Shown here piece by piece: positions 28,830 through 45,588 of a DNA stretch of 64,000 nucleotides; within the stretch, counting starts at the first letter, position 1; every line of letters starts with the position of its first letter. The stretch is from a virus. The notes under the pieces were generated by a model. It was not told the origin of the DNA, did no database searches, and saw only the letters and a list, made by a program, of their open reading frames with translations. The stretch spans positions 4,421 to 68,420 of IMG/VR virus record IMGVR_UViG_3300025141_012093; one strand, written 5' to 3'. Position numbers and translations under genes: made by a program.

Positions 28830-29594
28830 TTAATCGTATTGTCCCTGATCTTCCTCTATTTGAAGCCGGACAAAATATTTCTTTTCATTGTGAATAAAAT
28901 AAGCAGACTTGTTATTTTTAAACGTTCTAGCTCTTATGATGTTTATTAAATCTTTACCAATATAAGAACGATTCAGATCAATGCAAGAATGAGTCTCAAT
29001 TTCTTTAGATAAATGAAAATCGCCTGCTTCCAGATCTGGCTTCTTAAGCGCGTAAGAGCCCTCTAATATATTGACATAATTTTTCTTAAACAAGTATACC
29101 ATATGATTTAAAGATTTTTCATATATTTCGTCACCTGTGTCGCTGATATTTGTGGTATAAAGCTCTTGAAATAAGATGCTTCCTTCGTCCACGTTCTCAT
29201 TGATAAAGTGAAGTGTGCTTCCTGTAGGGTTTTCGTTTACAGTAGCCCAGTAATATGGGTGTTTTCCTCGATTTAGCGGAATAAGACTTGGATGCGTATT
29301 GATAAAGCCTGTGTTGACACTTTCAATAATTTCTTTTTTAAGGATAGTTGGCCACCATAAGAGCATCCCGATGTCAATATTTTCCTCTTGAAGTAGGAAT
29401 TTGAATTCAGGGGTATTGCATCTTATGTTGGTGTAACACGGGATCTCATTTTCTAAACAAAGAGTCTTGATTTTGTCTTTATAGGGTGAGTCTTGCTGGG
29501 CTATGACAAATCTAACCGGATCTTTTTTTGTCTTAAAGATAAAGTCTAGCAGTTCATAGCCAACCCACTTGTCCGCGCACACCGCAATGTTCAA
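28830..29594 (-). CDS. Sugar N-formyltransferase (N10-formyl-THF dependent)
   Basis: INTHPSLIP.NRG, GSTLHFI...VDEGSI, IRART. Confidence 0.88.
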   Translation of the reverse strand: MNIAVCADKWVGYELLDFIFKTKKDPVRFVIAQQDSPYKDKIKTLCLENEIPCYTNIRCNTPEFKFLLQEENIDIGMLLWWPTILKKEIIESVNTGFINTHPSLIPLNRGKHPYYWATVNENPTGSTLHFINENVDEGSILFQELYTTNISDTGDEIYEKSLNHMVYLFKKNYVNILEGSYALKKPDLEAGDFHLSKEIETHSCIDLNRSYIGKDLINIIRARTFKNNKSAYFIHNEKKYFVRLQIEEDQGQYD

Positions 29595-30496: not shown

Positions 30497-30918
30497 GTCT
30501 TCTTCAACTCCAGAAATTGCTGGTAGTCCGTAATGTAATCTTTTGGATCATACGAAGTGCTTGATAATACCAGCAAAACGGAGTTTTGTAAAGTGTAAAC
30601 ACATTCATCCCATATCATCGAAGGGATATATAAGCCCTGAGTTGGGCTTTCAAGACTATAAATTCTTTTGGACTTACCATCGCGACAGTGTACGTCAATG
30701 CGTCCACTTAGACAAATTAAAATTTGTTCAGTTGTGTGATGAGCGTGTTTCCCTCTGATGGAGTCTTTGGGTGTGTCAAAAACGTAGAACATTCGCTTGG
30801 GAACGAAAGGCAAGTCCGAGTCCAATTCGAAAGGAAGCAAAGCTCCGTCCTTATAACCATCTTTAAAGCTGTACTTGGCAGTAAACCACAGTCTCTGTAT
30901 ATCATTCAGCCTAGTCAT
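30493..30918 (-). CDS. dTDP-sugar 3,4-ketoisomerase, FdtA/QdtA (WxcM-like) cupin
   Basis: PFVPKRMFY, RGKHAH, GLYIP..W, LLVLSS..YD..DYI. Confidence 0.9.
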   Translation of the reverse strand: MTRLNDIQRLWFTAKYSFKDGYKDGALLPFELDSDLPFVPKRMFYVFDTPKDSIRGKHAHHTTEQILICLSGRIDVHCRDGKSKRIYSLESPTQGLYIPSMIWDECVYTLQNSVLLVLSSTSYDPKDYITDYQQFLELKKT

Positions 30919-31343
30919 TTGCTTTTGGTATCCCAACACTCGCCAAAATGGCCCGGTAAAGCTTTTTTTTCATCAGGGTTTTCCATATCGTATTTTTCAT
31001 CTAAATAATACATCATTATAGAGTTAGGTTCTAGAGCTTTGTAGCCGTGATAAATACCAGGCGGAATTTTTAAAACTCTAAGATTCTTATCAGAAATATA
31101 TTCCCACTCAACGTTATAACTTCCGTCCTTTTGCGGATAAGCCAGTCCTACCTTGAAAGAGCCTTTTGGGCAAAACCAATAGTCAGTTTGTCTGTCGTGA
31201 CTGTGCCAAGCAACAACATGCTCTGTAGAATTAACGTAAGATATGTTAATCTGGCCGCGTATTTCATCAAAGATATCAAACAACCTCTGGGCTCTATCGT
31301 CTTCGTGAAAAGCCACTCTTCTGAAAGAAACTTTAGTAGTCAC
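30915..31343 (-). CDS. RmlC-like dTDP-sugar 3,5-epimerase cupin
   Basis: HEDDR, AWHSH..QTD, IPPGIYHGYK. Confidence 0.8.
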   Translation of the reverse strand: MTTKVSFRRVAFHEDDRAQRLFDIFDEIRGQINISYVNSTEHVVAWHSHDRQTDYWFCPKGSFKVGLAYPQKDGSYNVEWEYISDKNLRVLKIPPGIYHGYKALEPNSIMMYYLDEKYDMENPDEKKALPGHFGECWDTKSK

Positions 31344-32092
31344 TTTTGAACCACTGCAATGAAACTACAATAATCCCCCCAATTAGACTTGAAGATTGGA
31401 TAATTTCTTTTAGTGGCATATTCGTACAAGGCCCTATGCTCTCCCTGGAGAGGGTCATCGGGGTGTAGAAAGCCAGAATCTACTATCAAAATTGTGTTAT
31501 TTACGAAGTATTTTTCTAAGTTAAAAAGACCTTCTATTCCTGGCTTGTACACATTAGTGTCAATATTGACCATTGAAATCATTTTGCTACGAGGCATAAA
31601 ATTTTTAGTTGTTTCGCAAATATCTCCCTTTATGAGTTCGACATCAACAAAATCAACAAGAGAGTTCAATTCCTCCTGTAAATCATCCCTAGAGTGAAGC
31701 CATCGATCAGAATCTTGATTTTCTCTCAGCGCTTCAGCAAGCCGATTACCTTCATCTTTAATATGCTCTTCAAGATATCCTTCAAATGTATCAAAGCCAT
31801 AAATTGCAACATTTTTTCGATTAAGTTCTTGAAGACACCAAGAAAAAACTGCCACATTATGCCCAGGACCGGATCCTAATTCTACAATATCGCCAGGAGG
31901 ACAGCGCATTATCAACTCAGATTGTATTTTAATTCTTCCTATTCTTCGACCGTGGATTTCAGGAAAATACCAATACTTATTTGCGCCCGGATAAGGAAGG
32001 GAATCACAAATATCTGTTTCAGCACGTTCGGCTGATCGAGCGTTCTTGAAATCTTCTAAAGAATAGATTTGTTGAAAGAGTCTGTTGTTCAT
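31340..32092 (-). CDS. TylF/MycF/NovP-family O-methyltransferase
   Basis: PGDIVELG, YGFDTFEG, LIKGDI.ET, NIDT..Y. Confidence 0.85.
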   Translation of the reverse strand: MNNRLFQQIYSLEDFKNARSAERAETDICDSLPYPGANKYWYFPEIHGRRIGRIKIQSELIMRCPPGDIVELGSGPGHNVAVFSWCLQELNRKNVAIYGFDTFEGYLEEHIKDEGNRLAEALRENQDSDRWLHSRDDLQEELNSLVDFVDVELIKGDICETTKNFMPRSKMISMVNIDTNVYKPGIEGLFNLEKYFVNNTILIVDSGFLHPDDPLQGEHRALYEYATKRNYPIFKSNWGDYCSFIAVVQK

Positions 32093-32835
32093 TATTGGTC
32101 TGCCTTTTTAAAGAAAACGTGATCATAATAAGTAACAATAGGGTTCGATGGATCTCTATCTCTTACTTTGAAAACAAGTGGAGGGGGTACAGAGCCAGGG
32201 GCCTTTCCTGTGTTACTCCACGTAAGATGCGTTAACTCGTAGCCCCTTCCAATAAAAGATTGATTAAAAACAAGATAGTTACAAATATTGAAATAGCGTG
32301 CGTCTTTAGGCCCAGGATGCTTGGCGTAAGTGTAAAAAGATTGATCTTCTCCTTGTACTGCCAAAATAGAGCGTGTTAATAAAATACAGGTGGCATCAGT
32401 GTTACAAAAGTTTTTAATGTTCTCTTCTACTGAATCTTCTGTCAAGTTGATTGTGGCGTCGCTATAGAATATATGTGGACTCTTGGGGGCGTCGTCCAGA
32501 GATGTGAAGTATTTCACTTCATCGCCAAGATCTTTTCCGACACCAGGAAGCTCGATAATATTGTAATCGAATTCTTTGTCGGTGGCCCTTTTCAATGTGG
32601 CATAAGCCTTGCCGTTTCCTCCTCCATAATCAACGATAGTTAGCTTTTTATCGGGAAAAGCCTTGACAACATCAATTAGTTTTTGCACTGACATATTGGA
32701 AACGGGCTTTCCATCGTCACGGTGAGATCCGTAAGACGACCTTGGGCGTGGGATTTCTTCTTCGGTGGAATAATGGCCTTCAAATACCACTGGGTGTATC
32801 CTAACTTCATATTCAGCTTGGTCTTGTTCATTCAT
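32092..32835 (-). CDS. Methyltransferase, TIGR04325-like
   Basis: IVDYGGGNG, YNIIELP. Confidence 0.65.
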   Translation of the reverse strand: MNEQDQAEYEVRIHPVVFEGHYSTEEEIPRPRSSYGSHRDDGKPVSNMSVQKLIDVVKAFPDKKLTIVDYGGGNGKAYATLKRATDKEFDYNIIELPGVGKDLGDEVKYFTSLDDAPKSPHIFYSDATINLTEDSVEENIKNFCNTDATCILLTRSILAVQGEDQSFYTYAKHPGPKDARYFNICNYLVFNQSFIGRGYELTHLTWSNTGKAPGSVPPPLVFKVRDRDPSNPIVTYYDHVFFKKADQ

Positions 32836-34016
32836 TTTATCACCTGTACTATTGGAACGTGGGTTATAAAATAACCTCCTCTGTCAATAAAGTTAACCTC
32901 TTTTTTAAGAATCTCGTCTTTAAAATTCCAAGCGCCCAGATAAGCAACATCAACACTGTCATCGAATCCTTGTTCCGGTGAGATTACGGGAATATGAGAG
33001 CCAGGGGCCAGTTTCCCTTGTTTGTGAGGTGTTGTGTCAACAATGTAATCAATGTGGTCAGTTGAGATACCGCAATAGTTAAATACCGTTGTTGATTTAG
33101 AAGTCGCGCCATAACTAACAATCTTTTTACCTTGATCCCTCAAGCTTTCAAGAATTATAACCAATTCATCTTTGGACTGCTTTACTTTTTCGCCAAATTT
33201 TATATAAGTATTAAAACTTTCTAGGCCCATCTCCTGTTCCTTTTGGAGATTAAGGTCTACGTCAATCGTAGGGAAAATTTTATTATTGTTCTTATGTTTT
33301 ACGTAGATCCTGTTGCTTCCACCGTGAACCGAGAGGTTTGCAACGTGAAAGATCTCCAGTCCGTTTCTCTCAAGAATGTTTTTAAGCGCCATAACGGAAA
33401 AAATATGAGCGTGTTCGTCGTATATCTGGTCATATGAATTTCTTTCAATCATCTTATCCAAAGCTGGATCTTCAAACACAAAGACGCCTTCATCGGTTAG
33501 CAACGTTCTAATGGCTGTAAAGGCATCATCCAGATCTTGAATGTGACACATACAGTTTGCAGAAAAGATTAAATCTTGCTTTCCGTGTTCAATCAAGATC
33601 TTCTTAGATAATTCTGTGTTCCAGAATTTAGGAAAAGTATGATAACCTTTTTTGTTTGTAATCTCAGCGAAGTTGGAGCAAGGCTCAACAGCGATAGTGG
33701 TGGCTGAATCAAAGTTCTTAATGAATACGCCGTCATTGCTGCCAATTTCCATCACCTTGGTCGGATTGTAAGCCTCCTTGAATTCAGAAGCTGCTGACGC
33801 AAAATGATCTCTCATGGTTTGAGACATTGAAGACACATAAACGTATGAATCGTTGAACATTAACTCGGGCTTGACGAACTCGGCCAAAGAAACAAGCTTT
33901 GTTTCATCGTCAAATACAACACGAAGATTAAAGAAGAATTCATCTTCAGGCGGTTCTCCTTCAATAAATCCATTTGCGATAGGCTGTTGGCCTAAATCAA
34001 GAAATAATTTTTTCAT
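32832..34016 (-). CDS. NDP-hexose C-methyltransferase (TylCIII/NovU/TcaB9 family)
   Basis: LDLGQQPIANGF, EIGSNDG, YDQIYDEH, HGGS.R, YGATSK, AWNF..EI. Confidence 0.93.
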   Translation of the reverse strand: MKKLFLDLGQQPIANGFIEGEPPEDEFFFNLRVVFDDETKLVSLAEFVKPELMFNDSYVYVSSMSQTMRDHFASAASEFKEAYNPTKVMEIGSNDGVFIKNFDSATTIAVEPCSNFAEITNKKGYHTFPKFWNTELSKKILIEHGKQDLIFSANCMCHIQDLDDAFTAIRTLLTDEGVFVFEDPALDKMIERNSYDQIYDEHAHIFSVMALKNILERNGLEIFHVANLSVHGGSNRIYVKHKNNNKIFPTIDVDLNLQKEQEMGLESFNTYIKFGEKVKQSKDELVIILESLRDQGKKIVSYGATSKSTTVFNYCGISTDHIDYIVDTTPHKQGKLAPGSHIPVISPEQGFDDSVDVAYLGAWNFKDEILKKEVNFIDRGGYFITHVPIVQVIK

Positions 34017-35071
34017 TTTTCAATCCTTCTGAAAATAAAATCAGATAAGTATCTGTCACTTTGTCGCCACGTTCCATTAACCTGAAAAGCGTGCTTTGCT
34101 GGTCTCTCAGTGTGGAATACAGCTTCATAACCACATTTTTGCAGAAATGATGTCAATTCATTAGAATTATAGATCACATAAGGAGTCATATATTTTATGT
34201 CCCACCTCTGAGTTGTTAAATAGGAGGCGTCTTCTTTACTAGTGTACAGTTCTCCAATACAAATAGTGGCGGGCTTCACGAGTGTTATTTTTTTAAATAA
34301 ATTCTTCCAATGATTACCAACAGGATCTAGATCTTGATCTGGCGCAACTTTGGGACCATCAGGATATTGGAGGCCGCCCCTGGAGAAGAATATGTCTAAT
34401 TTGTTTGTCTTATCAGGAATTTCGTTTATAAATTTTATTTTATAATCCCCAATAGATTGCCAATAATCGTTACATAAACCGACTATGCTGCCTAATTCAA
34501 CAACAGTGTAATCAACGCCAGAAAAATTAAGATCTTCTTCAACAAGAGACGCATAGTGAAGACCTACATTTCCACCGTAGTCTATGATCTTAAGATTTTC
34601 TTGATTTGGATGATATTCTTTGATTGTGTTGATAAGGTGATAGTTTCTTTCTTTTTCTTCAAAAAGAATCTCTCTATCATTATCAAGTATATCAGTTATT
34701 CTTTGATGATCTGCCGTTAATTCATCAAAGCTCCTAATATACCCAATTTTATTGTAACTGGTTGAGAGGCCCAATTTAATGCCATTCGTTTTTTCCTCAG
34801 TATCAAGATAATTAATAAGTTTTCGTAGCACTGTTTCGGGGTCTCCCTCAAATTCAAAACCCTCAAATTGTAATACGCCGCCTACCCTTCGTGGGTCGCG
34901 GAAAGACTCTTCCTCGGTAAAAGCAATAAATTTTGTATTCTGAGCCAGCCACTCAGTAACATTCTTTATTCTTCCAGCAGTCATCAAAATGTCTTCGTGA
35001 CTTTTGTATGAACCCACGAAGCTCAAAACAGAATCAAATTCATCAGAAGTGTTTTCATCAAATTCAGACAT
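34013..35071 (-). CDS. Methyltransferase, TIGR04325-like, with N-terminal extension
   Basis: IIDYGGNVGLHY, YTVVEL, GGLQY. Confidence 0.65.
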   Translation of the reverse strand: MSEFDENTSDEFDSVLSFVGSYKSHEDILMTAGRIKNVTEWLAQNTKFIAFTEEESFRDPRRVGGVLQFEGFEFEGDPETVLRKLINYLDTEEKTNGIKLGLSTSYNKIGYIRSFDELTADHQRITDILDNDREILFEEKERNYHLINTIKEYHPNQENLKIIDYGGNVGLHYASLVEEDLNFSGVDYTVVELGSIVGLCNDYWQSIGDYKIKFINEIPDKTNKLDIFFSRGGLQYPDGPKVAPDQDLDPVGNHWKNLFKKITLVKPATICIGELYTSKEDASYLTTQRWDIKYMTPYVIYNSNELTSFLQKCGYEAVFHTERPAKHAFQVNGTWRQSDRYLSDFIFRRIEK

Positions 35072-35743
35072 CTATAACTCTCCCAATATCAACTCGGCAC
35101 GGTGGATATCGCTTATGTCATCAATATCGACGTACCTGTCTTTTGGGAATTCGGTGCCTCTTACATTACCAATAAAAAAGTTCTTGTTTTTTTCCAGCTT
35201 ATTCCACCAAGACATATAGTATGCACCAGTTGGTTTGTGATGTTTTTGAATAAAACGACTGTTTGTCATCCCAGCAGTCAAATTATCAAACACTGGGATA
35301 AGATCATCGCCTTTCTTAATCATAGCAAGCTGAATTGGTTCTGAGTATTCTACGACAGAAACCACAGAATCTGTGCTGGTGGTTAGAAGACTCAATCCAT
35401 TGATAATATGCTTAGGAGTAACCAGCGGACACGTAGGTAAGAAATAGCTAAAAACATCGTGTTTAGGTATATCCTCCATCATAGCGATGAGGGCCTCCAA
35501 CACAGTCATACGATCAGTGGCGTATTCAGGAGGGCGTTCATATACTTGCACACCGTAACCTTCTGCAATCTTTGCAATATCTTCACTGTCGGTGGAGACC
35601 ATAATTGTATCAAAACAATTTGTCTCTAAAACGGCTTCGATAGCATAACCAATCAGCGGCTTGCCATTAAGGGGATGAAAGTTTTTATTTTTTAATCTTT
35701 TTGATCCTGCTCGTGCTGGAATTATCGCTAGTTTCGTAGTCAT
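35072..35743 (-). CDS. neuA: Acylneuraminate (CMP-nonulosonate) cytidylyltransferase
   Basis: AIIPARAGSKRLKNKN, VSTDS, PTCP, VDIDD..D. Confidence 0.92.
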   Translation of the reverse strand: MTTKLAIIPARAGSKRLKNKNFHPLNGKPLIGYAIEAVLETNCFDTIMVSTDSEDIAKIAEGYGVQVYERPPEYATDRMTVLEALIAMMEDIPKHDVFSYFLPTCPLVTPKHIINGLSLLTTSTDSVVSVVEYSEPIQLAMIKKGDDLIPVFDNLTAGMTNSRFIQKHHKPTGAYYMSWWNKLEKNKNFFIGNVRGTEFPKDRYVDIDDISDIHRAELILGEL

Positions 35744-35750
35744 TTGTCTC

Positions 35751-36701
35751 CTAATCTCTGTAATATTTTGACTGCTGTATCTGTTTTAATGTCTTCATAA
35801 GCTCTTTATGATCTTCGTCAGAAATAGATACCAAGGGTGGCCGCTCAACACGGCTCATAATCCCTAGCTCGTCCATCGCAGACTTAAGAGCCGGGTGCCA
35901 ACCGCAAGACATTGCGGCCCCGAGAAACGGGCGCTCAATTTCATTGATAATACCCCAAGATGTTTGGATGTCATCATCGACACAAGCTTTATAAAAATCC
36001 AAAGCAACTCGTGGAGCAAAGCTCCCTACACCAACCAAATAGGCGTGGCACCCCATTCTATGGAAGTGGACAAATTGTCGTTTGCCTCTTCCTGAAATGA
36101 TAACGTTTAACCGATCACCAAGTCTTTCAATGATCTTTTCTGAGAAGACTGGCTGCTTGCTGTCTTCTTTAATGGCGATAACGTTATCAATATCAGCAAT
36201 TCTATCCAACAAATCTAAAGGATAAAGAACATCCCCTCCTGCTTTAGAAGGAAGTTTCTGTTCGTGGATAAGAATTCCAATATTTGAGTTCTGAGCTACT
36301 GTATTAAAGTGATTGAATACTTGATCGTCACTGTAATAACGCTCCATAAAAATCATACTAAGTATGTCTGCTCCGCAGTCTTCAGCGTGTTTTGCAAAAT
36401 CTACGCTGACACTTGTTGGATTTGTAAGGGGATCGGCCACAATAGATATGCAATCTTCAGGTTTATCTTTAATCCTGCGTGTGACCACCTCATTGAGCTT
36501 CTTCATTTCATCCCATGACAGCAAGCTAAAGCGGCTGTTATAGGTCATAATATAAAAATTTCTTACTCCCTTGTCATAAAGAAAATCTACATACTCACAG
36601 GCTGCGTCGTAATCAACCTCGTAAGAGGGAGCGCCTTTAAAGGGCGTTATGATGGGAAATATTGGCCCTTTAAGGTTATTTTTAATCTTATTATAATTCA
36701 T
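35751..36701 (-). CDS. DHDPS/N-acetylneuraminate-lyase superfamily aldolase
   Basis: PIITPF, VD, IAIKED Schiff-base Lys, RPPL. Confidence 0.82.
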   Translation of the reverse strand: MNYNKIKNNLKGPIFPIITPFKGAPSYEVDYDAACEYVDFLYDKGVRNFYIMTYNSRFSLLSWDEMKKLNEVVTRRIKDKPEDCISIVADPLTNPTSVSVDFAKHAEDCGADILSMIFMERYYSDDQVFNHFNTVAQNSNIGILIHEQKLPSKAGGDVLYPLDLLDRIADIDNVIAIKEDSKQPVFSEKIIERLGDRLNVIISGRGKRQFVHFHRMGCHAYLVGVGSFAPRVALDFYKACVDDDIQTSWGIINEIERPFLGAAMSCGWHPALKSAMDELGIMSRVERPPLVSISDEDHKELMKTLKQIQQSKYYRD

Positions 36702-37056
36702 CTTGATTCGGTCCTCCTATGACTATTACCTTGGGATCGCTCAATTCAGCAAAAAAATCATCAGCATTAATGGCTTTATCGTCAATAAAAAGGTCATAAT
36801 ATGGCTTCTGAAGGGATACTTTTGTGTATTTTGCACCCCAAGAGTTTAATTGTTGAACTGTAAGTTCTGTCCAATCTTTTTTGGTTAGGGATCCTCGGGC
36901 CGTCCAGTAAACAATGGTATGCCCTAGATCGTATAACTCGTTTACTCTTCCAATGTTTTCTTCAATTGGTATTGCTTTCGCATAATCACGCTCCTGTGTT
37001 ACATCAGCGTTTTTATGATAGCAAATTGTCTCGTCAATATCAACATATATTACCAT
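36691..37056 (-). CDS. Small HAD-superfamily phosphatase
   Basis: DIDETIC, WTARG, KP.YDLFIDDK. Confidence 0.85.
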   Translation of the reverse strand: MVIYVDIDETICYHKNADVTQERDYAKAIPIEENIGRVNELYDLGHTIVYWTARGSLTKKDWTELTVQQLNSWGAKYTKVSLQKPYYDLFIDDKAINADDFFAELSDPKVIVIGGPNQDEL

Positions 37057-37895
37057 TATTTACCTCGCAAGCTCTTTCTTTTTGATAATTCAGAGGGAAA
37101 CAAAATTCTCTCCGTTTGTTCTTCTGGTCCTAATGACTGCTCCAAAATCCTTATGCCACGGAGCAACTTAATTGTCCCCACTGGATCTACAGAGGATGCT
37201 TGATCGCTGCCCCACATTGTCCTATCAAGAGTAACGTGGCGCTCGATCCAGTTGGCACCCAGCGTAACGGCTGCAAAGGTGGTGACAAGGCCGTATTCGT
37301 GGCCGCTGTAACCAATAGCAGCATCAGGATATTTCTTCCTTAAGTGCTTGATATAATTAAGGTTTAGCTCTTCATAAGCAGACGGATAAGAAGAGTTAGT
37401 GTGCATTATAACATCAGGCTTACCCACACGAACTGCCTCTTCAATCTCATCTTCTGTACTCATACCCGTAGAAATAATCAAAAAATTAAATTTCTCTCTG
37501 GCGTATTTGAGAAGCTCTAGGTCAGTGATGAGCGCAGAAGGTATCTTTCCAACGTCTGTGTAAGACGCCATAAAGTCAGTTGAGGCCAAATCCCAAACAG
37601 ATGCAAACCATTTGATACCTTGATCTTTACAGTATCGATCAATCTCATCGTATTCCTCTTTGCCAAACTCAATACGTTTCTTGTAGTCAATGTATTTTAT
37701 TGTGCCCCAAGGAGTCTCTCTCAACTTGTCCTTTTGGGCTTCTGGGACACATATATCTGGCTCTCTTTTCTGGAACTTAACATAATCGCAGCCAGCTATG
37801 TTGGCAGCGTCGATAAGTCTTTTGGCCAGGTCTAAAGACCCATTGTGGTTAATTCCAATTTCAGCGATAACATTGGTGTGATTAGTCTCTACCAT
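37056..37895 (-). CDS. neuB: N-acetylneuraminate/nonulosonate(-9-phosphate) synthase, lacking the C-terminal antifreeze-like domain
   Basis: IAEIGINHNG, KFQKR, ISTGMS, HTNSSYP, GYSGHE, IERHVTLDR; start at MVETNH. Confidence 0.93.
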   Translation of the reverse strand: MVETNHTNVIAEIGINHNGSLDLAKRLIDAANIAGCDYVKFQKREPDICVPEAQKDKLRETPWGTIKYIDYKKRIEFGKEEYDEIDRYCKDQGIKWFASVWDLASTDFMASYTDVGKIPSALITDLELLKYAREKFNFLIISTGMSTEDEIEEAVRVGKPDVIMHTNSSYPSAYEELNLNYIKHLRKKYPDAAIGYSGHEYGLVTTFAAVTLGANWIERHVTLDRTMWGSDQASSVDPVGTIKLLRGIRILEQSLGPEEQTERILFPSELSKRKSLRGK

Positions 37896-38575
37896 ATCGT
37901 ATAACCTCCATCCACTACGAACTCTGATCCCGTGCAATACGAAGAATCATCAGAACATAAAAATTTAACTAAACCGTTAAGCTCTCCCACCTTCATCATT
38001 CGTTGAGAAGGGGATTTTGTTGAATACTTGTCCATAAACTCAGTGCCTTGATTGTTCTCCACGCCGCCAGGTATAACACAATTTACTCTTATCTTGGGAG
38101 CCAGATGAACAGCAAGATATTTGGTTAGCTGGATCACAGAGGCTTTTGATACGGAGTACCCAGCGTGCTTGTGCTTGCCGTCCCTGTAAATGCGAGGATC
38201 GGGAGACTTAAGACCATAAATGGAAGAAAAATTAATAATGTTACCTTTGGGATTATTTCGAGCATACTCGCGACAAACAGAGAACAAGCTTGTTACATTA
38301 GTTCTCATATACTGATCAAAAGAATCTAGCGAAACATTGAACAGAGTTGATACATTTTCGTTATCTTTGTCGATGTGTTCATTCATAGCAAATAAATTAA
38401 TAAGATGATTAGCCTTGTTTTCCTTAAACCAAGCCTTCACGAAGCTTTCATCAGTCAAATCGTGACCAAGACTCCGAGAACACTTTATTATATCATAGCC
38501 AGATTTCTCAAGAAAGCAAGTAATTTCTTTACCAATTAGCCCTTGAGAGCCAGTTATTATAACCCTGTCGCTCAT
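37889..38575 (-). CDS. Short-chain dehydrogenase/reductase (PtmA-like)
   Basis: TGSQGLIG, SSIYG, YSVSK, VVDGG. Confidence 0.88.
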   Translation of the reverse strand: MSDRVIITGSQGLIGKEITCFLEKSGYDIIKCSRSLGHDLTDESFVKAWFKENKANHLINLFAMNEHIDKDNENVSTLFNVSLDSFDQYMRTNVTSLFSVCREYARNNPKGNIINFSSIYGLKSPDPRIYRDGKHKHAGYSVSKASVIQLTKYLAVHLAPKIRVNCVIPGGVENNQGTEFMDKYSTKSPSQRMMKVGELNGLVKFLCSDDSSYCTGSEFVVDGGYTIW

Positions 38576-38576
38576 T

Positions 38577-39701
38577 TTACCCCGCTAATTGGCCCATCTT
38601 GGGCATATCGCATTCTTTAGTGCATTTGATGCAAGGATTTAAATCGAAGTGATCCAAGCGGAATTTGCTGTATAATTCACCATTCCAGATGTCGTATAGG
38701 GAATTTTTACGAGCGTTGCCAAGGAAGATCTCATTATTGAAGTCTTCCATACACATATGAATCTCACCGTCTGACTTGACAGTTATCGACATCCAAGGGT
38801 GTTTGCAAACCTCTCTCCAGTGAATAGCGTTTGTGCCGTAAAAGTCCTGTTCTTGCTCAGGAGCATCGCGGCCTTTTTTATCAAGATAATTAAGAAGAGT
38901 CTCGTCTTTTCTATACCACTGTTGGTCTTCACTTTTAAGATAGATGTATACGTCCATATCTCTGAAGGCTTTGCTTAGCCTGCGGAATTCTTCTTGCTGT
39001 TCTTCATCGTGGCCAACGTCGATCATCGTAATGACAATCTTTGTGTCGTATCCTTTCTCTTCTTTAATACGCATAATTTCTTTAGTCTTTTCAAAGGCTT
39101 CGGTGAAATTGGCAGCATTGCCACGGATGTCTTTGAACTTCATATCATCGGTACTTTCAAAAGAATATTTAAGATAGGTCAGGCCAGCTTCCATTTGCTC
39201 AACTGTGCTTTCCACATCAATGTTGGCAGGATTACAGCTAAAGTATGATTCAAAGCCGTGCTCAGTCAAGCCTCTGACGACATTTGAGAGGTTTTTATCA
39301 AGCAGAGGGTCACCATAGCCGTGAAGCTGGATTACGCGAGGAATAATATATAAAAAGAAGTGATTCTCGCTAGGCTCAGAATCAGGGGCAATACCGTAGG
39401 TTTCTGTACAGAACTTCTCCCATTCGGCCCAAAGCTCATCACTATGGGGTTTTATTTGTTCGAAGATTCCATTGTAGAACTCTTGTTCTAAGTATGTAAT
39501 TCGACGTGTCATCTTGGTTGTGCGTGGGCACATCTTGCATCGCATATTACAGTTATTGGTCGTTTCAATGTTGTAAATAATAGGCTCTTTTGACCTAAAT
39601 TCTTCCCATAGTTTAATAAGTTTTTCTCTTGGGACCTCTTCGCCTTGGTCGAGCTTCTTGAGCCACGGATAAGACTTCATATAGAAATTAATATCATACA
39701 T
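38577..39701 (-). CDS. Radical SAM enzyme with SPASM/Twitch domain
   Basis: CNMRCKMC; C-terminal CKHPW...CMED...CIKC..EC. Confidence 0.9.
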   Translation of the reverse strand: MYDINFYMKSYPWLKKLDQGEEVPREKLIKLWEEFRSKEPIIYNIETTNNCNMRCKMCPRTTKMTRRITYLEQEFYNGIFEQIKPHSDELWAEWEKFCTETYGIAPDSEPSENHFFLYIIPRVIQLHGYGDPLLDKNLSNVVRGLTEHGFESYFSCNPANIDVESTVEQMEAGLTYLKYSFESTDDMKFKDIRGNAANFTEAFEKTKEIMRIKEEKGYDTKIVITMIDVGHDEEQQEEFRRLSKAFRDMDVYIYLKSEDQQWYRKDETLLNYLDKKGRDAPEQEQDFYGTNAIHWREVCKHPWMSITVKSDGEIHMCMEDFNNEIFLGNARKNSLYDIWNGELYSKFRLDHFDLNPCIKCTKECDMPKMGQLAG

Positions 39702-39716
39702 TTTTGTTACCTCTGA

Positions 39717-40340
39717 TTAATTTAGCTTAACTCTGCCTTGATTAGATAGTTCTGATATGAATTGCTTCTCAAAACTCACACCGTGATATGAGCTAGCGTC
39801 TGGTCTAGATCTCTCGTAATAATGATCACGGCTGCGATTGGTTGTGTCAAAGCCATATAAAGATGGCACAATATCCAGTAAAACACACAAACATATGAAA
39901 CCCACACCTAGAGTGGGGTATTTTTCTTCTGGAAAGCCAAAGTGAGACTTTATAGCTTCGGTGGCTCCATACTCATATAGAAACAATTCATTGCTGGAAT
40001 GGGTGTTTGTATCTCTTCTGCGCCAAGGATCTAGGTCAGAAGCAAAATATAAAATCTTGGTATCTCGCAAGTTTCTTACAAAATCTTTTGGTTGATCGCT
40101 GTATCCTTCGTGCAGGATATCGTTGTTATTAAATACGTGGTTGTTGATCACACGCAAGGTTGTTTTGGCACCAACATCGCTTTCAAAGCCCACAACCGGG
40201 GCACGGTTGAACCTAATGACATCGGTATGAGAATCGATGATTTTACCACACTCTGATCCTCTTAGGATACCAGATGAACCCACTATAGCAACATTGTCTG
40301 ATATTGTCAAGCTTGGATTAACAAAAGGTATCTTTTTCAT
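39717..40340 (-). CDS. GT29-family sialyltransferase-like glycosyltransferase
   Basis: Sialylmotif L (VAIVGSSGIL...G..IDSH..VIRFN.AP...DVG.KT), S (PTLG...LYGF), III (HYYE), VS (HxxxxE). Confidence 0.88.
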   Translation of the reverse strand: MKKIPFVNPSLTISDNVAIVGSSGILRGSECGKIIDSHTDVIRFNRAPVVGFESDVGAKTTLRVINNHVFNNNDILHEGYSDQPKDFVRNLRDTKILYFASDLDPWRRRDTNTHSSNELFLYEYGATEAIKSHFGFPEEKYPTLGVGFICLCVLLDIVPSLYGFDTTNRSRDHYYERSRPDASSYHGVSFEKQFISELSNQGRVKLN

Positions 40341-41153
40341 TTACGACCTCGCAAAAGACGGAATAAGAGCCTTAGCTGGCTGGCCTTGGAAGTGAATACA
40401 ATTAAATTTAATTTCTCTATCAAGCCAAAGCTTCTTGCAGTAAGGTTTGTTGTCCCTCCAGAAAAACTTTTTTATACCGTTCTCAGTTTCGTATCCGTCG
40501 TCTCCATTGATATTGTGATCAAATGTAGAGTCGTCGATAATTGCTGACGTTTCACCATAGTCGCCTGGATTTCCGATGTTGCGATAGATACTCCAGATTG
40601 TCATATCACATACGCCGCCTTGTCGGCCAGCGTTTTGTAAGTTCCTGTAATGGAGTTTACACTTGTTGAAATTGAACATATCTTCTTTGCTATAGATGCT
40701 ATTGCACAAAGCGTGGAATTCATCTAACACACTTAAATCATTGATGAAAGTGATGCCAGCACTAATGTTGTGAGTCATTGTGCAGCGATAGTTAGCAAAT
40801 TTCTTTTGCTCCTCTGCAATGTCACAATAAAGCATCACATCTGAATCGCAGTAAAAGAACTTATCAATGTTTTTCTTCTTGCAAAATCGATTCATAATGA
40901 ACCAGCGAACGATGCAAATCATTTCATATCCTGCATCATTGGTGCTCAGGTGAGTGTAAATCTTTTTAAAGCCCCAGACATCTTCAAAAAAGTTGTCATA
41001 GGCATAATACTTCACATCCGTTGCATATTTCTCGTTACCTTCGTCACCAAGAAGATATATGTCAGAATCAGGATTTGAGTTAACTGCCTGTTTAAGAGTA
41101 TGCTCTAGATATGACGAGTCTCCTGCGTGGAAAAATATAATTGGAATGCTCAT
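40341..41153 (-). CDS. Putative GT-A glycosyltransferase
   Basis: CIVRWF, FYCDSDVML (DxD), CDMT, IHFQG. Confidence 0.65.
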   Translation of the reverse strand: MSIPIIFFHAGDSSYLEHTLKQAVNSNPDSDIYLLGDEGNEKYATDVKYYAYDNFFEDVWGFKKIYTHLSTNDAGYEMICIVRWFIMNRFCKKKNIDKFFYCDSDVMLYCDIAEEQKKFANYRCTMTHNISAGITFINDLSVLDEFHALCNSIYSKEDMFNFNKCKLHYRNLQNAGRQGGVCDMTIWSIYRNIGNPGDYGETSAIIDDSTFDHNINGDDGYETENGIKKFFWRDNKPYCKKLWLDREIKFNCIHFQGQPAKALIPSFARS

Positions 41154-41815
41154 TTGTGCCTCATTAATATACTGCGTGTGTAATTTTCTTTTGTAAAAGC
41201 GCTTGTTTCATATCCAGGCGGCGGGCCATAATGTAATGGCAATTCTTTCACTATTTCAAATTCTTTTTCTTCCAAAAGTTTTGAGAATTCATCTCGATTG
41301 ATGACAGATTGATAACTGTCCACGCCGCCATAAGAGGGATACCTATACAAGTGTGTCTCTCTTTTGTCGCTAAAAGCTTGTCTATGCAATATAACATATT
41401 TAGGAGAGAATGTTAAGATCTTAGACAGACATAAAACGGGCTTTTGTAGAACATCTATAAAGGCGTTCATTACAATCACATCATAATCTTTGATAAACTC
41501 GGGTGAATCCTCATAAATATCAAACGGAATGTAAGAATTTTGAGGATGCATCTTCATAGATACTTCTTTGATTATATTAGGTAAATCGGCCCCAGTGTAA
41601 TAAAAGTTAGGATACAATCTCGATAGTTCGGCGGCACCACAACCTATGTCCAGCAAGGTGAAAGCATCATCTTTTGTCTCCACGATCAAAGAATTAAGAA
41701 CAGGAAAGTGGTCACTCTCCTCAAGCACTGGCCATAGAATTCCTTTTGCTCCCAAGAGCATTTGTTCAGGAACTTTAGATGAATCATACCAACATGTATC
41801 TTTCTTAACATTCAT
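41150..41815 (-). CDS. Class I SAM-dependent methyltransferase
   Basis: LLDIGCG, YTGAD. Confidence 0.8.
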   Translation of the reverse strand: MNVKKDTCWYDSSKVPEQMLLGAKGILWPVLEESDHFPVLNSLIVETKDDAFTLLDIGCGAAELSRLYPNFYYTGADLPNIIKEVSMKMHPQNSYIPFDIYEDSPEFIKDYDVIVMNAFIDVLQKPVLCLSKILTFSPKYVILHRQAFSDKRETHLYRYPSYGGVDSYQSVINRDEFSKLLEEKEFEIVKELPLHYGPPPGYETSAFTKENYTRSILMRHK

Positions 41816-42695
41816 ATTGAGTTAATTCCTTGTCGAAGCGTGCTTTAAGTTCTTCGAAATTGTCTTGAATTGATTTAGGGTGAGTTCCTGTAAACGGTTC
41901 TGTCTTGGCAGGTGGACGATATTCTGGCTTGAATTCGTGTACGCCGTTCCAGAAAGATTCTACAAATATCCTATTTTGTTCATCGCCTTGCACCCAGTTA
42001 AGATACACCAAATCAAAATAATTGTCAATACATTTTGACATACTTACCTTAGCACGATAATAAAAAATTTTATTACGCACTTGTTCAGGAAAAACATATG
42101 AATAATGGTACATTTGAACGCCGTGTTTATCGTACAAAGTGTCTCCATCGAGATGTTTAAGCGGGAGCGTCTTAGTTCCTCGACGATGAGCCATCGTGGG
42201 GGGCCTGTGTGTCTGCCAATAAGAGCCAGGATAGACCTTAAAAATGCGATGAAAATTGCCCTTTTGGCGCTCAAAACCTCCAATATATCGGTCAAATCCG
42301 CCATAAAACGAGCAACTCTTCACATCCACCGAGGTATACCTTTCTTTCTCCAAAACCTTAATTATTTTTTTTATGTCTTCAGCTTTCCATAATTCATCTG
42401 AATCAATTTGCCAGAAATAATCCACATCATCGTTTAAGAACTGCATATATGCGTTGCATTGTTCGTCCTTCTCAGAAAATTGACCGTGGACAATTTTAAT
42501 TTTATTGTCAGGGTCTGGGAAGTTGTGCAGTATATCATTGGTGTTATCTTCAGATGTTGTCTTTCCTTGTTCTTGCCAGAACCTAACAGGCCCTTCAGCA
42601 ATCAAAATTTGATCAGCAAAAGGATAAACACACTCAAGGCACTCCTTAAGAACATAATCTCCTTCAAACACAATCATTCCAAACGCAATTTTCAT
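41805..42695 (-). CDS. GT2-like glycosyltransferase
   Basis: GMIVFEG, IAEG, QIDSDE, HYSYV. Confidence 0.78.
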   Translation of the reverse strand: MKIAFGMIVFEGDYVLKECLECVYPFADQILIAEGPVRFWQEQGKTTSEDNTNDILHNFPDPDNKIKIVHGQFSEKDEQCNAYMQFLNDDVDYFWQIDSDELWKAEDIKKIIKVLEKERYTSVDVKSCSFYGGFDRYIGGFERQKGNFHRIFKVYPGSYWQTHRPPTMAHRRGTKTLPLKHLDGDTLYDKHGVQMYHYSYVFPEQVRNKIFYYRAKVSMSKCIDNYFDLVYLNWVQGDEQNRIFVESFWNGVHEFKPEYRPPAKTEPFTGTHPKSIQDNFEELKARFDKELTQYEC

Positions 42696-43606
42696 TTTAT
42701 CATTTCCTTAGTTTTTTTGAGAGACTCAAAATACTCGTTACAAACTCTTTGAATCAGAGGAGGCATCTGAGGAGTAGTGTCTCTTGTAAATCCGTGACGG
42801 GGGCCAATCTCATAATAATTCTTCTCGTAATTGACCTTGAAGTCAGAATAGTGGTAGTAGACAAGCGGTTGGACGTTTTGTTCCCAAACAACACTATTGT
42901 CTGTGTACCTATGATAAGCCAGATTCCAAGGAGCTAAGTGCCCTACCTTCTTATCGATAACGCGAACATTATCCTCTCCAGATAATGGAGAGAAAAGTTC
43001 TAAGTATTTTTGGTCGCCACACATACCGTGGGTGTCGTAATATTTGTTTTCAATGTCGAGAAGACAGTCTTTCCAAAAAGTTGAACAGGAGTAACCAGAC
43101 AAGTCTTTTTTAAAATAAACGATTCCCACGTTGAATTCTCCCACCGCAGCAGAATAAGGGATTCGATGGCGGACAATTCCAATGCTTTTAGAATCGATCT
43201 CCTCAAAGATCACGTTCCAATCGTGATAAAAATAAATATCAGGATCGATGTATAACACATCATCTGTGTCATCAAGATCAAGAACATACCACGTAAAGTA
43301 TGAGCTAAGGCACCAGAAAAATTGAACTTTCTTGGGATCACAGTTGGTCTTGTTCCCTACATTAACGGCCTCGTAAGAAGGTTCATTATTCTGCGCTTCT
43401 TTAAGATCTGGATCTGTTTTAAAAAGGTCCTCTAAAGAAACAGGGACAACACGGTCCAAATCTAACTCTTTTAATTTCTGATATGATTCTTCATCAGAAC
43501 ACAAATAAAAAAGTTCAAAATTATCATTGTGTTTGTTTAATGATTCATAAAGAGACAGTCCGCGATGAAGAAAGTTTATATCAGAGGTTGTGCAAAACCT
43601 CTTCAC
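42692..43606 (-). CDS. GT-A glycosyltransferase (GT8-like)
   Basis: FCTT.D.NFL.RG, YIDPDIYF, FNVG, DQKYL, APWN, YHYS. Confidence 0.82.
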   Translation of the reverse strand: MKRFCTTSDINFLHRGLSLYESLNKHNDNFELFYLCSDEESYQKLKELDLDRVVPVSLEDLFKTDPDLKEAQNNEPSYEAVNVGNKTNCDPKKVQFFWCLSSYFTWYVLDLDDTDDVLYIDPDIYFYHDWNVIFEEIDSKSIGIVRHRIPYSAAVGEFNVGIVYFKKDLSGYSCSTFWKDCLLDIENKYYDTHGMCGDQKYLELFSPLSGEDNVRVIDKKVGHLAPWNLAYHRYTDNSVVWEQNVQPLVYYHYSDFKVNYEKNYYEIGPRHGFTRDTTPQMPPLIQRVCNEYFESLKKTKEMIK

Positions 43607-45588
43607 TTTTTTAAACTCATCATTAATTTTTGATATTTTTTGAAGATCTCAATCTCTTCTTTTCGTTTCCAACCATCGTGCTCGGGGTTGGTAGACATCC
43701 CAGTGGGGTTAAAATAGTATAACCCTACGACATCATTAAACTTTTTGAATACACTGCCTTGTGAAGCGGCGCGTAACCACATTTCCCAATCAGCAGCAGA
43801 TCGATACTTTTCTTCAAAATATCCATACTCATCGTGAACAGTCTTGCGCCACATCGGAGAAGCGTGAGGCATATTTCCTCTCAAGAGATTTTCAAAAGAG
43901 AAATCAGGGAAATTATATTTTTCACCATTCGATGAGTTATTTTCAAATGTCTCATTAGGCTTGTGTGTAATAAGCATATTAGAATAGACTAAATCAACTT
44001 CTGGATTGGCGTAAAGTTCAATAGCGTGGCGTTCTAAAGCGTTTGCGGCCTTGCGATCGTCTAAATTAGCATTCGTTAGAAACTGACCTGTAGCCATTTT
44101 AGCAGCCATATTCCACACAGCGTAGATACCTGGATCTTCTTCCAATCTTTTGTAGACAATGTTGTTGGGATATTTTTCCAAATATTCGTTGATAACTTCT
44201 TCTTCATTGCCTGGTGAGTTAGCGTTGATAAGAATAAGCTCGCATTTTTCTTCAAAGATGGATTGTCGAGTAATATCTTCCAAGAATGAGCGAATATATT
44301 CATCACCATTATAAACAGATGTAAGAATTGAAATTTTAGGTATTTCTTCAATCATTCCATTAAGTTGAGCAAATTCTGCTTCGCCAACAATAGACCTAAC
44401 GAATACGTCATATTGTTTTTGTTCTTCAAAGTTCTTAAGAACGTGTTTTTTAAGCTTTTTGGCCATCCCTGTAAATCGAGAGTAGTCACTATACACCTCA
44501 TACAATCGCCTCTTATAGGAATTCTTGTCAGAGTACGCCCATTGAGATCCGCGTTGCAACACACCGTCCCAAACAACGGGTTCGGGAATAGGTGCAAGGT
44601 TGTAATCAACTGTTGCAAACATAGGCTTATTCCTTGTTTTGCCTTTTTTATCTTTCACGGGCATACAAAGAAAATCCAAATGGCCACTCCATTCAGGAGC
44701 AACCACAGGCAGACCAGAGTAAGCAGCTTCAAAAAGGGGCAGCCCGAAGCCTTCGCCGTGAGTCAACGATACAATTGCTTTAATCTGTGGATGCACATAG
44801 AGAGCGTGAATTTCTTCTTCTTTCATATTGCCATGAACAAGATGGATCTTGCACTGACAGTCTGGTACACTAGCGTGCAGGTTTTTAAGGTGCTCTTTGA
44901 CTCCCTGTCTATCCTGATAGCTATTATTAATTTTAAAAGCTTTCAGAACAAGACCAACATCAGGGTTGTCTTTAAATTCTTCCAAGAACCACATAACAGT
45001 CTCATCTAGAGCTTTTCTAGGTCCCCATTGAGCTACTGCCAAGAAATTAAACTTTGTTGAGAACTCAATATTTAGGTCTTCTGTTTTTTTATTCCTCACA
45101 GGATAATGGACAATATCGATAGGAGTTGTACAGCGAGCAACGAACTGCTCATTAGTGTCGTTGTTAGTGGCCTCATAAGTAGTGTTTTCATAAACGGTCT
45201 TGGAGTGCTGGGATATGGTAATGATCTTATCCATATTCCAAGCCTTTTCTAACCACTGAGGGGCTACCATTGTAGTTTCAATCCCAGCAGTAACACCTAT
45301 ATTTATATCAGCATACTTTTCCCATTCGTTAGGTATGGTCACCTGCAAAGACATATCAAATGTACCTTTTTCAGCTTTATATCTTTGGGTTTTGTCAACG
45401 ATACTATCGATCCATTTTCGCTCTTCATTGTCTTCGACTTCCCAGCCAGTATTTCCCCAACCAGTTGGATCGGCGTAGATATCGAACAATCTTCCTTCAT
45501 ATTTTCTCAATGCACGCAGCAAAAATCGTGCGTGTTCACCATAACCCGAGCGGGTCAAAAATGGACCTTTTACAAATACTTTTTTCAT
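43603..45588 (-). CDS. Bifunctional glycosyltransferase: N-terminal GT4 plus C-terminal GT2
   Basis: SGYGEHAR...HGEGFGLPLFEAA (GT-B); KISILTSVYN...NLDD...DWEMWLR (GT-A). Confidence 0.9.
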   Translation of the reverse strand: MKKVFVKGPFLTRSGYGEHARFLLRALRKYEGRLFDIYADPTGWGNTGWEVEDNEERKWIDSIVDKTQRYKAEKGTFDMSLQVTIPNEWEKYADINIGVTAGIETTMVAPQWLEKAWNMDKIITISQHSKTVYENTTYEATNNDTNEQFVARCTTPIDIVHYPVRNKKTEDLNIEFSTKFNFLAVAQWGPRKALDETVMWFLEEFKDNPDVGLVLKAFKINNSYQDRQGVKEHLKNLHASVPDCQCKIHLVHGNMKEEEIHALYVHPQIKAIVSLTHGEGFGLPLFEAAYSGLPVVAPEWSGHLDFLCMPVKDKKGKTRNKPMFATVDYNLAPIPEPVVWDGVLQRGSQWAYSDKNSYKRRLYEVYSDYSRFTGMAKKLKKHVLKNFEEQKQYDVFVRSIVGEAEFAQLNGMIEEIPKISILTSVYNGDEYIRSFLEDITRQSIFEEKCELILINANSPGNEEEVINEYLEKYPNNIVYKRLEEDPGIYAVWNMAAKMATGQFLTNANLDDRKAANALERHAIELYANPEVDLVYSNMLITHKPNETFENNSSNGEKYNFPDFSFENLLRGNMPHASPMWRKTVHDEYGYFEEKYRSAADWEMWLRAASQGSVFKKFNDVVGLYYFNPTGMSTNPEHDGWKRKEEIEIFKKYQKLMMSLKK

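Follow-up and report, generated by a model that had tools for sequence, protein, structure and literature searches.

The locus described here raises the question of whether a tailed phage could make, activate and transfer an acidic sugar of its own. The stretch analysed, referred to as the window, is 64,000 nucleotides long and corresponds to bases 4421-68420 of the IMG/VR viral record IMGVR_UViG_3300025141_012093, a linear fragment of 68,420 bases that is estimated to be ~38% complete, for a genome of roughly 180 kb. A preliminary description, made from the sequence alone, had placed seven consecutive genes at 35072-40340 and read them as a sialic acid module that includes a GT29 sialyltransferase. 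The list of open reading frames (ORFs) and the Pfam matches agreed with the gene content and order given there. On the minus strand, in the order of transcription, the genes encode a GT29 transferase, a radical SAM enzyme, a short-chain dehydrogenase/reductase (SDR), a NeuB-family synthase, a small predicted phosphatase of the HAD type, a DHDPS/NAL-superfamily enzyme and a NeuA-type cytidylyltransferase; neighbouring genes overlap or are separated by a few bases only. The proposal that they form a set for making, activating and transferring a sugar is supported, at the level of sequence, by the identities of the genes and by their recurrence in related loci. The reading that best explains the data, with a probability of about 0.65, is that this cassette constitutes a self-contained line for the synthesis, activation and transfer of a nine-carbon 2-keto-3-deoxy sugar acid, set in the glycan island of an uncultured marine T4-like myophage of which the window is a fragment.

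The first gene of the cassette (39717-40340) encodes a 207 aa protein that matched PF00777 over profile positions 58-271 of 272 (E = 6e-30, 105 bits against a cut-off of 23); a six-frame search of the whole record gave 100.8 bits. Against the PDB, the protein matched the animal sialyltransferases ST6Gal1 (4e-13) and ST3Gal1 (1e-12) as well as ST6GalNAc2 and ST8Sia3 (range to 1e-9). Sialylmotifs L, S, III (HY[YW]E; HYYE in this protein) and VS (Hx4E) were all conserved in an alignment of 28 family members, with H173, H186, E191, the RFN of motif L and G145, P159 and G163 of motif S invariant, and the protein aligned to ST6Gal1 motif for motif. The two invariant His residues are presumably catalytic, as in ST3Gal-I. 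An AlphaFold2 model of high confidence was obtained (pLDDT 95.4, pTM 0.92), and among the matches listed in a Foldseek search of the PDB, ranks 1-30 were all GT29 sialyltransferases (E 6e-11 to 4e-7, TMq 0.56-0.75), with the GT42 enzymes CstII and Cst-I ranking after the GT29 structures. Structural alignments to solved GT29 enzymes showed ~20-24% identity. The family assignment made in the preliminary description was therefore confirmed by profile score, sialylmotifs and the GT-A variant fold of solved sialyltransferases.

The eukaryotic GT29 enzymes (ST3Gal, ST6Gal, ST6GalNAc and ST8Sia) share the Pfam family, the four sialylmotifs and the fold with the phage protein, which nevertheless differs from them in being short and operon-linked to donor synthesis, and possibly in using either a C8 or a C9 ulosonate as its donor. 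It starts 16 residues before motif L, with no N-terminal transmembrane (TM) or hydrophobic segment and no stem, and the cysteines of motifs L and S that are paired in ST6Gal1 are replaced by Val and Leu, respectively. The absence of a TM anchor together with the loss of the Cys pair fits a cytoplasmic GT29; type II topology, stem and disulfide are features of the Golgi enzymes, not criteria of the CAZy family GT29. From its sequence and model, the protein is predicted to be a minimal soluble transferase of a cytidine monophosphate (CMP)-linked ulosonic acid.

The remaining six genes were assigned with varying precision. The radical SAM protein (38577-39701) matched PF04055 (33 bits, cut-off 29.5) and, through its SPASM auxiliary-cluster domain, PF13186 (52 bits, cut-off 21.5); a CX3CX2C cluster motif could be read from the translation, and a weak match to BtrN (7e-7) was also seen. 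The SDR (37889-38575; adh_short_C2, PF13561, 108 bits) gave PRK09186 (124 bits) as its best NCBIfam match and PtmA at 77 bits, both under cut-off. These two enzymes are predicted to catalyse tailoring steps. The NeuB-family protein (37056-37937; PF03102, E = 1e-63, 215 bits) is a phosphoenolpyruvate (PEP)-condensing synthase without the C-terminal SAF domain; Pfam returned no match to a SAF/AFP-like domain, and the best PDB match was 6ncs, a SAF-less sialic acid synthetase of 290 aa (1.7e-29). The start listed for it, a TTG, gives a 49-base overlap with the SDR gene, and the true start may be an in-frame ATG 14 codons downstream. The HAD-type protein (36691-37056, 121 aa) was recognised by weak profiles only, all below cut-off (PF25109, 1e-3; the capsule phosphatase TIGR01689, 5e-5), and the profile scan returned no match to KdsC models. 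It carries the DxDxT nucleophile motif as DIDET at residues 6-10, matched PDB entry 9iqw, a 'capsule biosynthesis protein', at 2e-12, and is predicted to be an ulosonate-phosphate phosphatase. The DHDPS/NAL-superfamily enzyme (35751-36701; PF00701, E = 5.5e-21, 75 bits) is divergent: its best NCBIfam matches were KdgD and DapA (64-71 bits, far below cut-off), the NAL model gave 37 bits against a cut-off of 281, and its atlas look-alikes bore generic labels only. The Schiff-base Lys K178 was invariant in 10 viral homologues, as was the pair K178-E179. Our guess from the sequence is that this enzyme might have a free 2-keto-3-deoxy acid as its substrate and catalyse, for instance, its C4 epimerisation or an elimination. 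The last gene (35072-35743) encodes the cytidylyltransferase (CTP_transf_3, PF02348, E = 6e-25, 89 bits).

The term sialic acid used in the preliminary description could not be sustained at the level of these matches. NeuB scored 202 bits against NeuB_NnaB (TIGR03569, cut-off 400) and 150 bits, also below cut-off, against PseI, while NeuA scored 146 bits against PseF (cut-off 206); in the PDB, NeuA gave 85-90 bits with CMP-Neu5Ac synthetases versus 30-37 bits with KdsB. No NeuC-, LegG- or PseG-type gene (Epimerase_2/PseG-like) was detected among the island ORFs scanned, of which two (25599-26690 and 28078-28815) gave no match at all and could hold a divergent version. Moreover, the neighbour of GT29 is of the KdsA type in six of the 22 related loci described below.

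For the pathway, the following steps are proposed. The SAF-less NeuB would condense PEP and a hexose that is probably 6-phosphorylated, such as mannose 6-phosphate, which would give a 9-phosphate resembling that of 2-keto-3-deoxy-D-glycero-D-galacto-nononic acid (Kdn), and the small HAD enzyme would take off the phosphate. The DHDPS-like Schiff-base enzyme, the SDR and the radical SAM enzyme might then tailor the sugar before the NeuA-type enzyme joins it to CMP. Finally, the minimal, disulfide-free cytoplasmic GT29 would transfer the sugar, with inversion, onto a glycan made by the neighbouring glycosyltransferases. Condensation of a hexose 6-phosphate with PEP followed by a phosphatase is the Kdn route of Bacteroides thetaiotaomicron. 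A phosphorylated intermediate is the most economical interpretation, at about even odds, and is favoured because a HAD gene accompanies both types of cassette found in the related loci, because this gene is fused to the DHDPS-like gene in one of them, and because the window also encodes a phosphomannomutase and a GDP-mannose dehydratase.

To examine the recurrence of the cassette, hidden Markov models built from the loci were searched in six frames. A scan of IMG/VR with the single GT29 sequence had returned no relative, so an alignment-based scan was needed, and this yielded 29 GT29 loci. Strong GT29 matches, defined as at least 150 bits, were present in 22 of the 29, representing 18 distinct sequences (L009, L010 and L012 being identical, as were L015, L016 and L017); the other seven had a weak GT29 match and no cassette genes. 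A PEP-condensing ulosonate synthase was encoded on the same strand within ~10 kb of GT29 in 18 of the 22 loci. This synthase was NeuB in 12 and a DAHP_synth_1 protein of the KdsA type in six. A NeuA-type cytidylyltransferase was found in 19/22 and a DHDPS-like gene in 13/22. Four of the six DAHP_synth_1 proteins were scanned with NCBIfam, and all were identified as synthases of 3-deoxy-D-manno-octulosonate (Kdo) 8-phosphate, with 227-266 bits against the NF003543 cut-off of 242 and three of the four above it. HAD homologues with 51-64% identity occurred in NeuB-type and KdsA-type cassettes alike. In the KdsA-type cassette of L011 (10694-11890), the HAD domain is fused to the N-terminus of the DHDPS-like enzyme in a protein of 398 aa, which on sequence is a Rosetta-stone link between the two steps. 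This fusion, and the occurrence of HAD with both synthase types, indicate that the HAD enzyme is part of the pathway.

The cassette is a swappable module in which NeuB or Kdo-8-phosphate synthase stands beside the same GT29, and the transferase is therefore best described as a CMP-ulosonate transferase, not as a proven sialyltransferase. The window and L003 were 74.6% identical over 40119-50327, from PhoH to the first ~220 bases of GT29, and mosaic downstream. In L003 a cupin gene separates NeuB from the cytidylyltransferase; in the window, GT29 and NeuB are separated by the radical SAM and SDR genes. Sulfotransferases, an ATP-grasp enzyme together with a pyridoxal phosphate (PLP)-dependent one, or methyltransferases are further additions in other relatives. 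One of these, L009, encodes at 10630-12483 and 15841-17636 a 617 aa protein in which NeuB is fused to SAF and a xylose-isomerase-like TIM barrel, followed by a kinase of the APH type, an O-methyltransferase of the CmcI type and two sulfotransferases. From this gene set, the nonulosonates of that phage might be sulfated or methylated.

Several results weigh against a line of this kind. None of the cassette enzymes reached its NCBIfam equivalog cut-off, so these profiles do not identify the sugar. The DHDPS-like enzyme lacks the catalytic Tyr, having an invariant His146 instead, and also lacks the GxxGE motif (GTTGE is replaced by TYNSRF). Four of the 22 loci had no synthase, although two of these end 2.4 and 4.8 kb past GT29, and HAD was present in just five, so a phosphorylated intermediate would not be general. 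The radical SAM and SDR genes were essentially unique to the window: among the related loci, the former gave one tblastn match at 18% identity and the latter a single weak match (26%, in L006). The GT29 tree did not follow the synthase, as the six KdsA rows required six changes, a number as low in 500 of 500 shuffles, and the expectation that GT29 clades would track synthase type was thereby ruled out. One well-supported clade (99/99) mixes KdsA-type (L013, L023) and NeuB-type (L009, L010, L012) loci. Within it, L009 and L023 share a collinear stretch (83% nucleotide identity) that runs to the final base of GT29; after the stop codon L009 continues with the NeuB fusion, a DHDPS-like gene and a kinase, L023 has a DHDPS-like gene and KdsA instead, and collinearity then resumes. 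This exchange implies either that GT29 accepts C8 and C9 donors alike or that it is uncoupled from the adjacent synthase.

The cassette lies within a larger glycan island of 26 kb (20986-46853), a run of 29 ORFs on the minus strand that are each 100 aa or longer, so the seven genes of the preliminary description are a sub-module of the feature and not its whole extent. The packing is operon-like, the largest intergenic gap across 28078-46853 being no more than 40 bases. Upstream of GT29, Pfam and PHROGs identified six co-oriented, gap-free genes (40341-46853, minus strand) for a protein of 270 aa without assigned function, a methyltransferase, a GT2, a second such protein of 304 aa, a GT4-GT2 fusion (661 aa) and a GT4. 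Their products are 75-89% identical to those of L003 and are presumed, from sequence, to build the acceptor glycan. The atlas look-alikes of the 270 aa protein were unnamed or labelled 'glycosyl transferase', which is a lead only, and the L033 relative of the 304 aa protein gave a borderline match to GT8 (E = 3e-5, 24.0 bits; cut-off 24.3). Downstream of the cassette (20986-35071, minus strand), Pfam and NCBIfam matches identified a guanosine diphosphate (GDP)-mannose 4,6-dehydratase, RmlA- and RmlB-like enzymes, FdtA, two DegT aminotransferases, an N-formyltransferase, a C-methyltransferase and TIGR04325-type methyltransferases. No other CMP-sugar-dependent glycosyltransferase family besides GT29 was detected by Pfam in the island, nor was any flippase, polymerase, ligase, ABC exporter or polyprenyl-phosphate initiating transferase among its ORFs. 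No TM-like segment was found in the 29 ORFs save the core hydrophobic strand of GT29.

Phage genes were identified on both sides of the island: the gp6 baseplate wedge gene (3708-5516) and gp25 (5564-5965) on one side, and PhoH (49133-50446), a head maturation protease (52947-53579) and a PD-(D/E)XK exonuclease on the other. Two tRNA genes are also present. The gp55-like gene mentioned in the preliminary description was absent from the ORFs scanned with Pfam or PHROGs, the small ORFs having been scanned in part. To assess the integrity of the contig, 24 marine or seawater metagenome runs containing words of 33000-42999 were considered, none of them listed as RNA. Besides a possible source run, the shares of sampled words were 93% (run X2), 58% (X3) and 37% (X4), and contigs from runs X2-X5 were compared over 18500-38499. 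In X2, an independent metagenome, a contig of 1,351 bases covered 19867-21217 with 0 mismatches and spanned the 474-base gap at the left edge of the island, and a second contig of 4,274 bases covered 32651-36924, again with 0 mismatches. X2 depth was 5.7 just outside the island (18500-19166), 17.6 and 29.4 in two left-edge bins (20501-21834) and ~3.5-13 in the bins of 21835-38499, with values of ~5-7 over most of the island as on its outer side. Homologues of gp6 (44% and 41% identity) were located with the cassette on one contig in two of the five relatives' records searched, the other three being fragments or more distant lineages, and the order PhoH, GT4, GT4-GT2 fusion, GT29, NeuB was syntenic in L003, L006 and L007.

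These data bear on the possibility that the island is bacterial DNA misjoined to a phage contig, or that the record is a bacterial fragment misclassified as viral. The sugar genes do have bacterial relatives, and the record is linear and incomplete, but contigs from an independent run cross the left junction at similar depth on each side, independent uncultivated viral genomes (UViGs) carry gp6 and the cassette together, the PhoH-to-GT29 order is kept in three of them, phage genes flank the island on both sides, and GC content is flat across it (0.38-0.41). The bridging contigs, the shared contigs and the synteny answer the chimera objection, so that this explanation is largely refuted and can be given very little credence, and the description of the cassette as phage-borne held. 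A different challenge concerns the donor: GT29 might not be the transferase for the NeuB product at all, using instead host- or phage-made CMP-Kdo or another CMP-sugar, with an unassigned glycosyltransferase handling the nonulosonate. Gram-negative hosts all supply CMP-Kdo, and use of CMP-Kdo or another such CMP-sugar has been proposed for plant GT29-like proteins. The occurrence of near-identical GT29 genes beside either KdsA or NeuB is in keeping with such a donor, yet GT29 lies directly upstream of the synthase-containing block in 18/22 loci whichever synthase is present, and GT29 is the sole known CMP-sugar transferase family detected in the island. Furthermore, in the two KdsA-type loci scanned for this enzyme (L005 and L022), the cytidylyltransferase was NeuA/PseF-like and not KdsB-like, which points to common downstream steps able to accept either chain length. 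A transferase uncoupled from the cassette is accordingly considered improbable, and the coupled make-activate-transfer line is retained as the preferred reading.

On that reading two possible acceptors of similar standing, each somewhat short of even odds, were weighed. As the preliminary description considered possible, the GT29-capped glycan could be attached in the cytoplasm, before lysis, to proteins of the virion itself, such as the capsid, the tail fibres or the 3077 aa protein described below. The TM-free island ORFs, the lack of detected export and initiation genes, and the position of the island next to baseplate and large structural genes (3708-19179) are consistent with this, and giant viruses are described as glycosylating their virions autonomously in the relevant passages of PMC9614988. 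On the other hand, no protein-glycosylating transferase family, for example Maf-like, was recognised, and peripheral glycosyltransferases acting on host undecaprenyl-linked intermediates are also without TM segments, so the missing export genes do not discriminate between the two. Alternatively, the surface polysaccharide of the infected cell could be remodelled by way of the host lipid carrier, flippase and ligase, with a block to superinfection, altered adsorption of released progeny, or deterrence of grazers as the likely consequence. Host remodelling is the hypothesis given in passages on the lipopolysaccharide clusters of P-SSM2 (PMC1079782), on Lake Biwa viral genomes with neuA/B/C (10.1101/655167) and on kdsA/kdsB of S-SCSM2R (PMC12801897), and the bacterial GT29 relatives, found in three metagenome-assembled genomes (MAGs), adjoin GT8-like, GT2 and methyltransferase genes in loci resembling those for cell-surface glycans. 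It would, however, require the host export machinery to accept a foreign repeat unit and a lytic myophage to complete envelope remodelling within one latent period.

Self-glycosylation has precedents, as chloroviruses, mimiviruses and some mycobacteriophages glycosylate their own virions with their own glycosyltransferases. Between the baseplate genes and the island of the window lie two giant ORFs of 3077 aa (6008-15241) and 977 aa (16246-19179). Neither matched a PHROG, and the 977 aa ORF also had no Pfam match; both could be fibre or surface proteins and might serve as targets of glycosylation.

The distribution of GT29 proved wider than the 'only scattered prokaryotic members' of the preliminary description. 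A profile search of 1.84 billion representatives (clusters at 50% identity) found 194 clusters of the short GT29 form at E<=1e-30, and the number rose to 2,609 when the limit was E<=1e-10; the best 150 matches were mostly 197-225 aa. In a word-indexed search, 76 of 118 candidate clusters matched at E<=1e-3; all were PF00777, none was functionally named, and wherever the source was labelled (Tara, JGI, ENA) it was marine. The same scan that gave the 29 IMG/VR loci, applied to ~186,000 prokaryote species with one genome each, gave three matches, namely two Opitutales MAGs and one Flavobacteriaceae MAG. A DAHP_synth_1 protein in Opitutales was rejected as a KdsA partner, being an aromatic-pathway DAHP synthase (293 bits to PRK08673), and was left uncounted. 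When GT29 was searched by tblastn against 50,697 GenBank phage records, the only match was the huge phage LR756508.

This unannotated genome of 484 kb encodes a NeuB 54% identical to that of the window, and GT29-like ORFs, NeuB, HAD and a cytidylyltransferase lie within 19 kb (L037, 308054-327189). It differs in having five GT29-like ORFs, three of them in tandem, and no paper on these ORFs was found. Nor was any literature found on a phage GT29 or on the cassette, in a search that left subscription journals largely outside. The preliminary statement that no characterised phage system of this kind was known thus stands as far as characterisation and GT29 are concerned; it does not extend to the individual genes, since neuA, neuB and neuC are noted in the Lake Biwa viral genome LBVG_26 (10.1101/655167) and neuA with neuB is tabulated for viral genomes (PMC3877843), in the passages concerned.

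Petit et al. 2018 (PMC5811610) report 23 bacterial GT29 sequences, mostly alpha-proteobacterial, and propose them, in the sections at hand, as outgroup and source of the eukaryotic GT29. Those sequences are prokaryotic and marine and bear sialylmotifs, as here; the available text of that paper contains neither the word phage nor virus, whereas the present family is mainly on viral contigs by the counts given above (29 loci versus 3). Among viruses, passages of PMC9614988 cite an alpha-2,3-sialyltransferase (GT29) encoded by Myxoma virus; this virus of eukaryotes relies on the CMP-sialic acid pool and the Golgi of its host and, unlike the phage cassette, has no donor-synthesis genes. The same source describes Kdo pathways, predicted in silico only, for CroV and Fadolivirus. 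Like the phage cassette, these comprise a viral ulosonate synthase, phosphatase and cytidylyltransferase in a large glycan cluster, and CroV's cytidylyltransferase falls among the CMP-NeuAc synthetases instead of with KdsB, a pattern also seen in the KdsA-type phage loci. They differ in belonging to eukaryotic giant viruses, in having fused bifunctional genes and in that no GT29 is reported in those passages. A coral virome study lists 'GT29 (1)' among viral CAZymes, without comment in the part concerned (PMC11656804).

Published phage counterparts are the islands of P-SSM2, LBVG_26 and S-SCSM2R (PMC1079782, 10.1101/655167, PMC12801897), which like the present one are big nucleotide-sugar and glycosyltransferase islands of marine or freshwater myophages. 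Their neuA/B/C or kdsA/B genes are annotated as auxiliary genes, and kdsA plus kdsB in S-SCSM2R is reported in its source as a first for a cyanophage; the passages on the three islands mention no dedicated CMP-sugar transferase, GT29, DHDPS-like or HAD partner, or synthase swap. Phage glycan islands with nonulosonate or Kdo genes, and prokaryotic and viral GT29, were thus already known. What is new is that a minimal GT29 is borne by phages and widespread, that it is coupled in a fixed way to a line for donor synthesis, that its DHDPS-like partner is conserved yet divergent, and that there is a sharply bounded exchange of NeuB and KdsA next to an unchanged transferase.

Taken furthest, the data might be read as an undescribed family of minimal cytoplasmic GT29 enzymes, widespread in marine tailed phages, that caps phage-built glycans, plausibly on the virion, with C8 or C9 ulosonates from plug-in synthase cassettes, tolerating both, and that forms, together with rare bacterial relatives, the stock from which the eukaryotic Golgi sialyltransferases arose. 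In this full form the proposal is speculative and rather doubtful. GT29 is nevertheless the family that sialylates animal cell surfaces, its origin is debated, and the large phage pool adds a viral reservoir to that question. The minimal phage GT29s, each tied to a donor pathway of its own, offer small, soluble, disulfide-free enzymes for tests of donor range (C8 versus C9), and soluble bacterial-type GT29s could serve as glycoengineering tools. For phage biology, the cassette would represent a complete and portable system for capping glycans with an acidic sugar: should it act on the virion, bacterial viruses would have an equivalent of giant-virus self-glycosylation, and should it act on the host envelope, it would be a surface-conversion module of lytic marine phages. 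The NeuB/KdsA swap provides a clean natural experiment in modular pathway evolution.

With respect to the lineage of the phage, gp6 was 30% identical to that of Flavobacterium phage immuto, 28% to that of LR756508 and 25-26% to those of Synechococcus phages. PhoH matched best a 5.6 kb unannotated 'Bacteriophage sp.' record (41%) and, among named phages, Bacillus phage vB_BauM_KLEB27-3 (37% aa identity). A megablast search of window positions 1-20000 against the 50,697 phage records gave no match. A search for distant DNA similarity to the cassette gave matches of only ~200 bases, within the HAD or NeuB genes, to Synechococcus phages Bellamy and S-SM2 and to a marine single-virus record. An interpretation of the window as a cyanomyovirus was dropped, given that gp6 is nearer to immuto than to the Synechococcus phages and that the best named PhoH match is at 37% only.

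Further features were noted in and around the island. At 22874-30939, an RmlB-like dehydratase, an RmlA-like nucleotidyltransferase, an FdtA 3,4-ketoisomerase, a DegT aminotransferase and an N-formyltransferase with a dimerisation C-domain together look, on sequence, like a complete phage-encoded pathway to a deoxythymidine diphosphate (dTDP)-linked 3-formamido-3,6-dideoxyhexose. Three paralogous TIGR04325 (LIC12133) methyltransferases frame the cassette (32092-32835, 34013-35071 and 41150-41815) and suggest methylated sugars. Outside the island, a eukaryote-type phosphomannomutase (53831-54592; PF03332, E = 2e-34; phrog_29277) is encoded between a tRNA-Arg gene and small family-less ORFs, and might supply the glycan island from a pool of mannose phosphate or GDP-mannose. 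At 51550-51996 a small protein resembling cytidylyltransferases is encoded (PF01467; phrog_7878, 'heptose 1-phosphate adenylyltransferase'), and two trypsin-like peptidase genes (50509-51261 and 52055-52954) lie on the plus strand, opposite to nearly all others.

At the left edge of the island, the segment 19167-20500 showed a summed X2 contig depth of 267-697 compared with ~6 on its flanks, and in four runs it gave dozens of alternative joints skipping ~230-250 or 1,000-1,300 bases. Its ORFs 19183-19485 and 19452-20138 had no Pfam or PHROG match. This segment looks like one that is common to many abundant phages, or like a repeat-bearing variable region beside the island.

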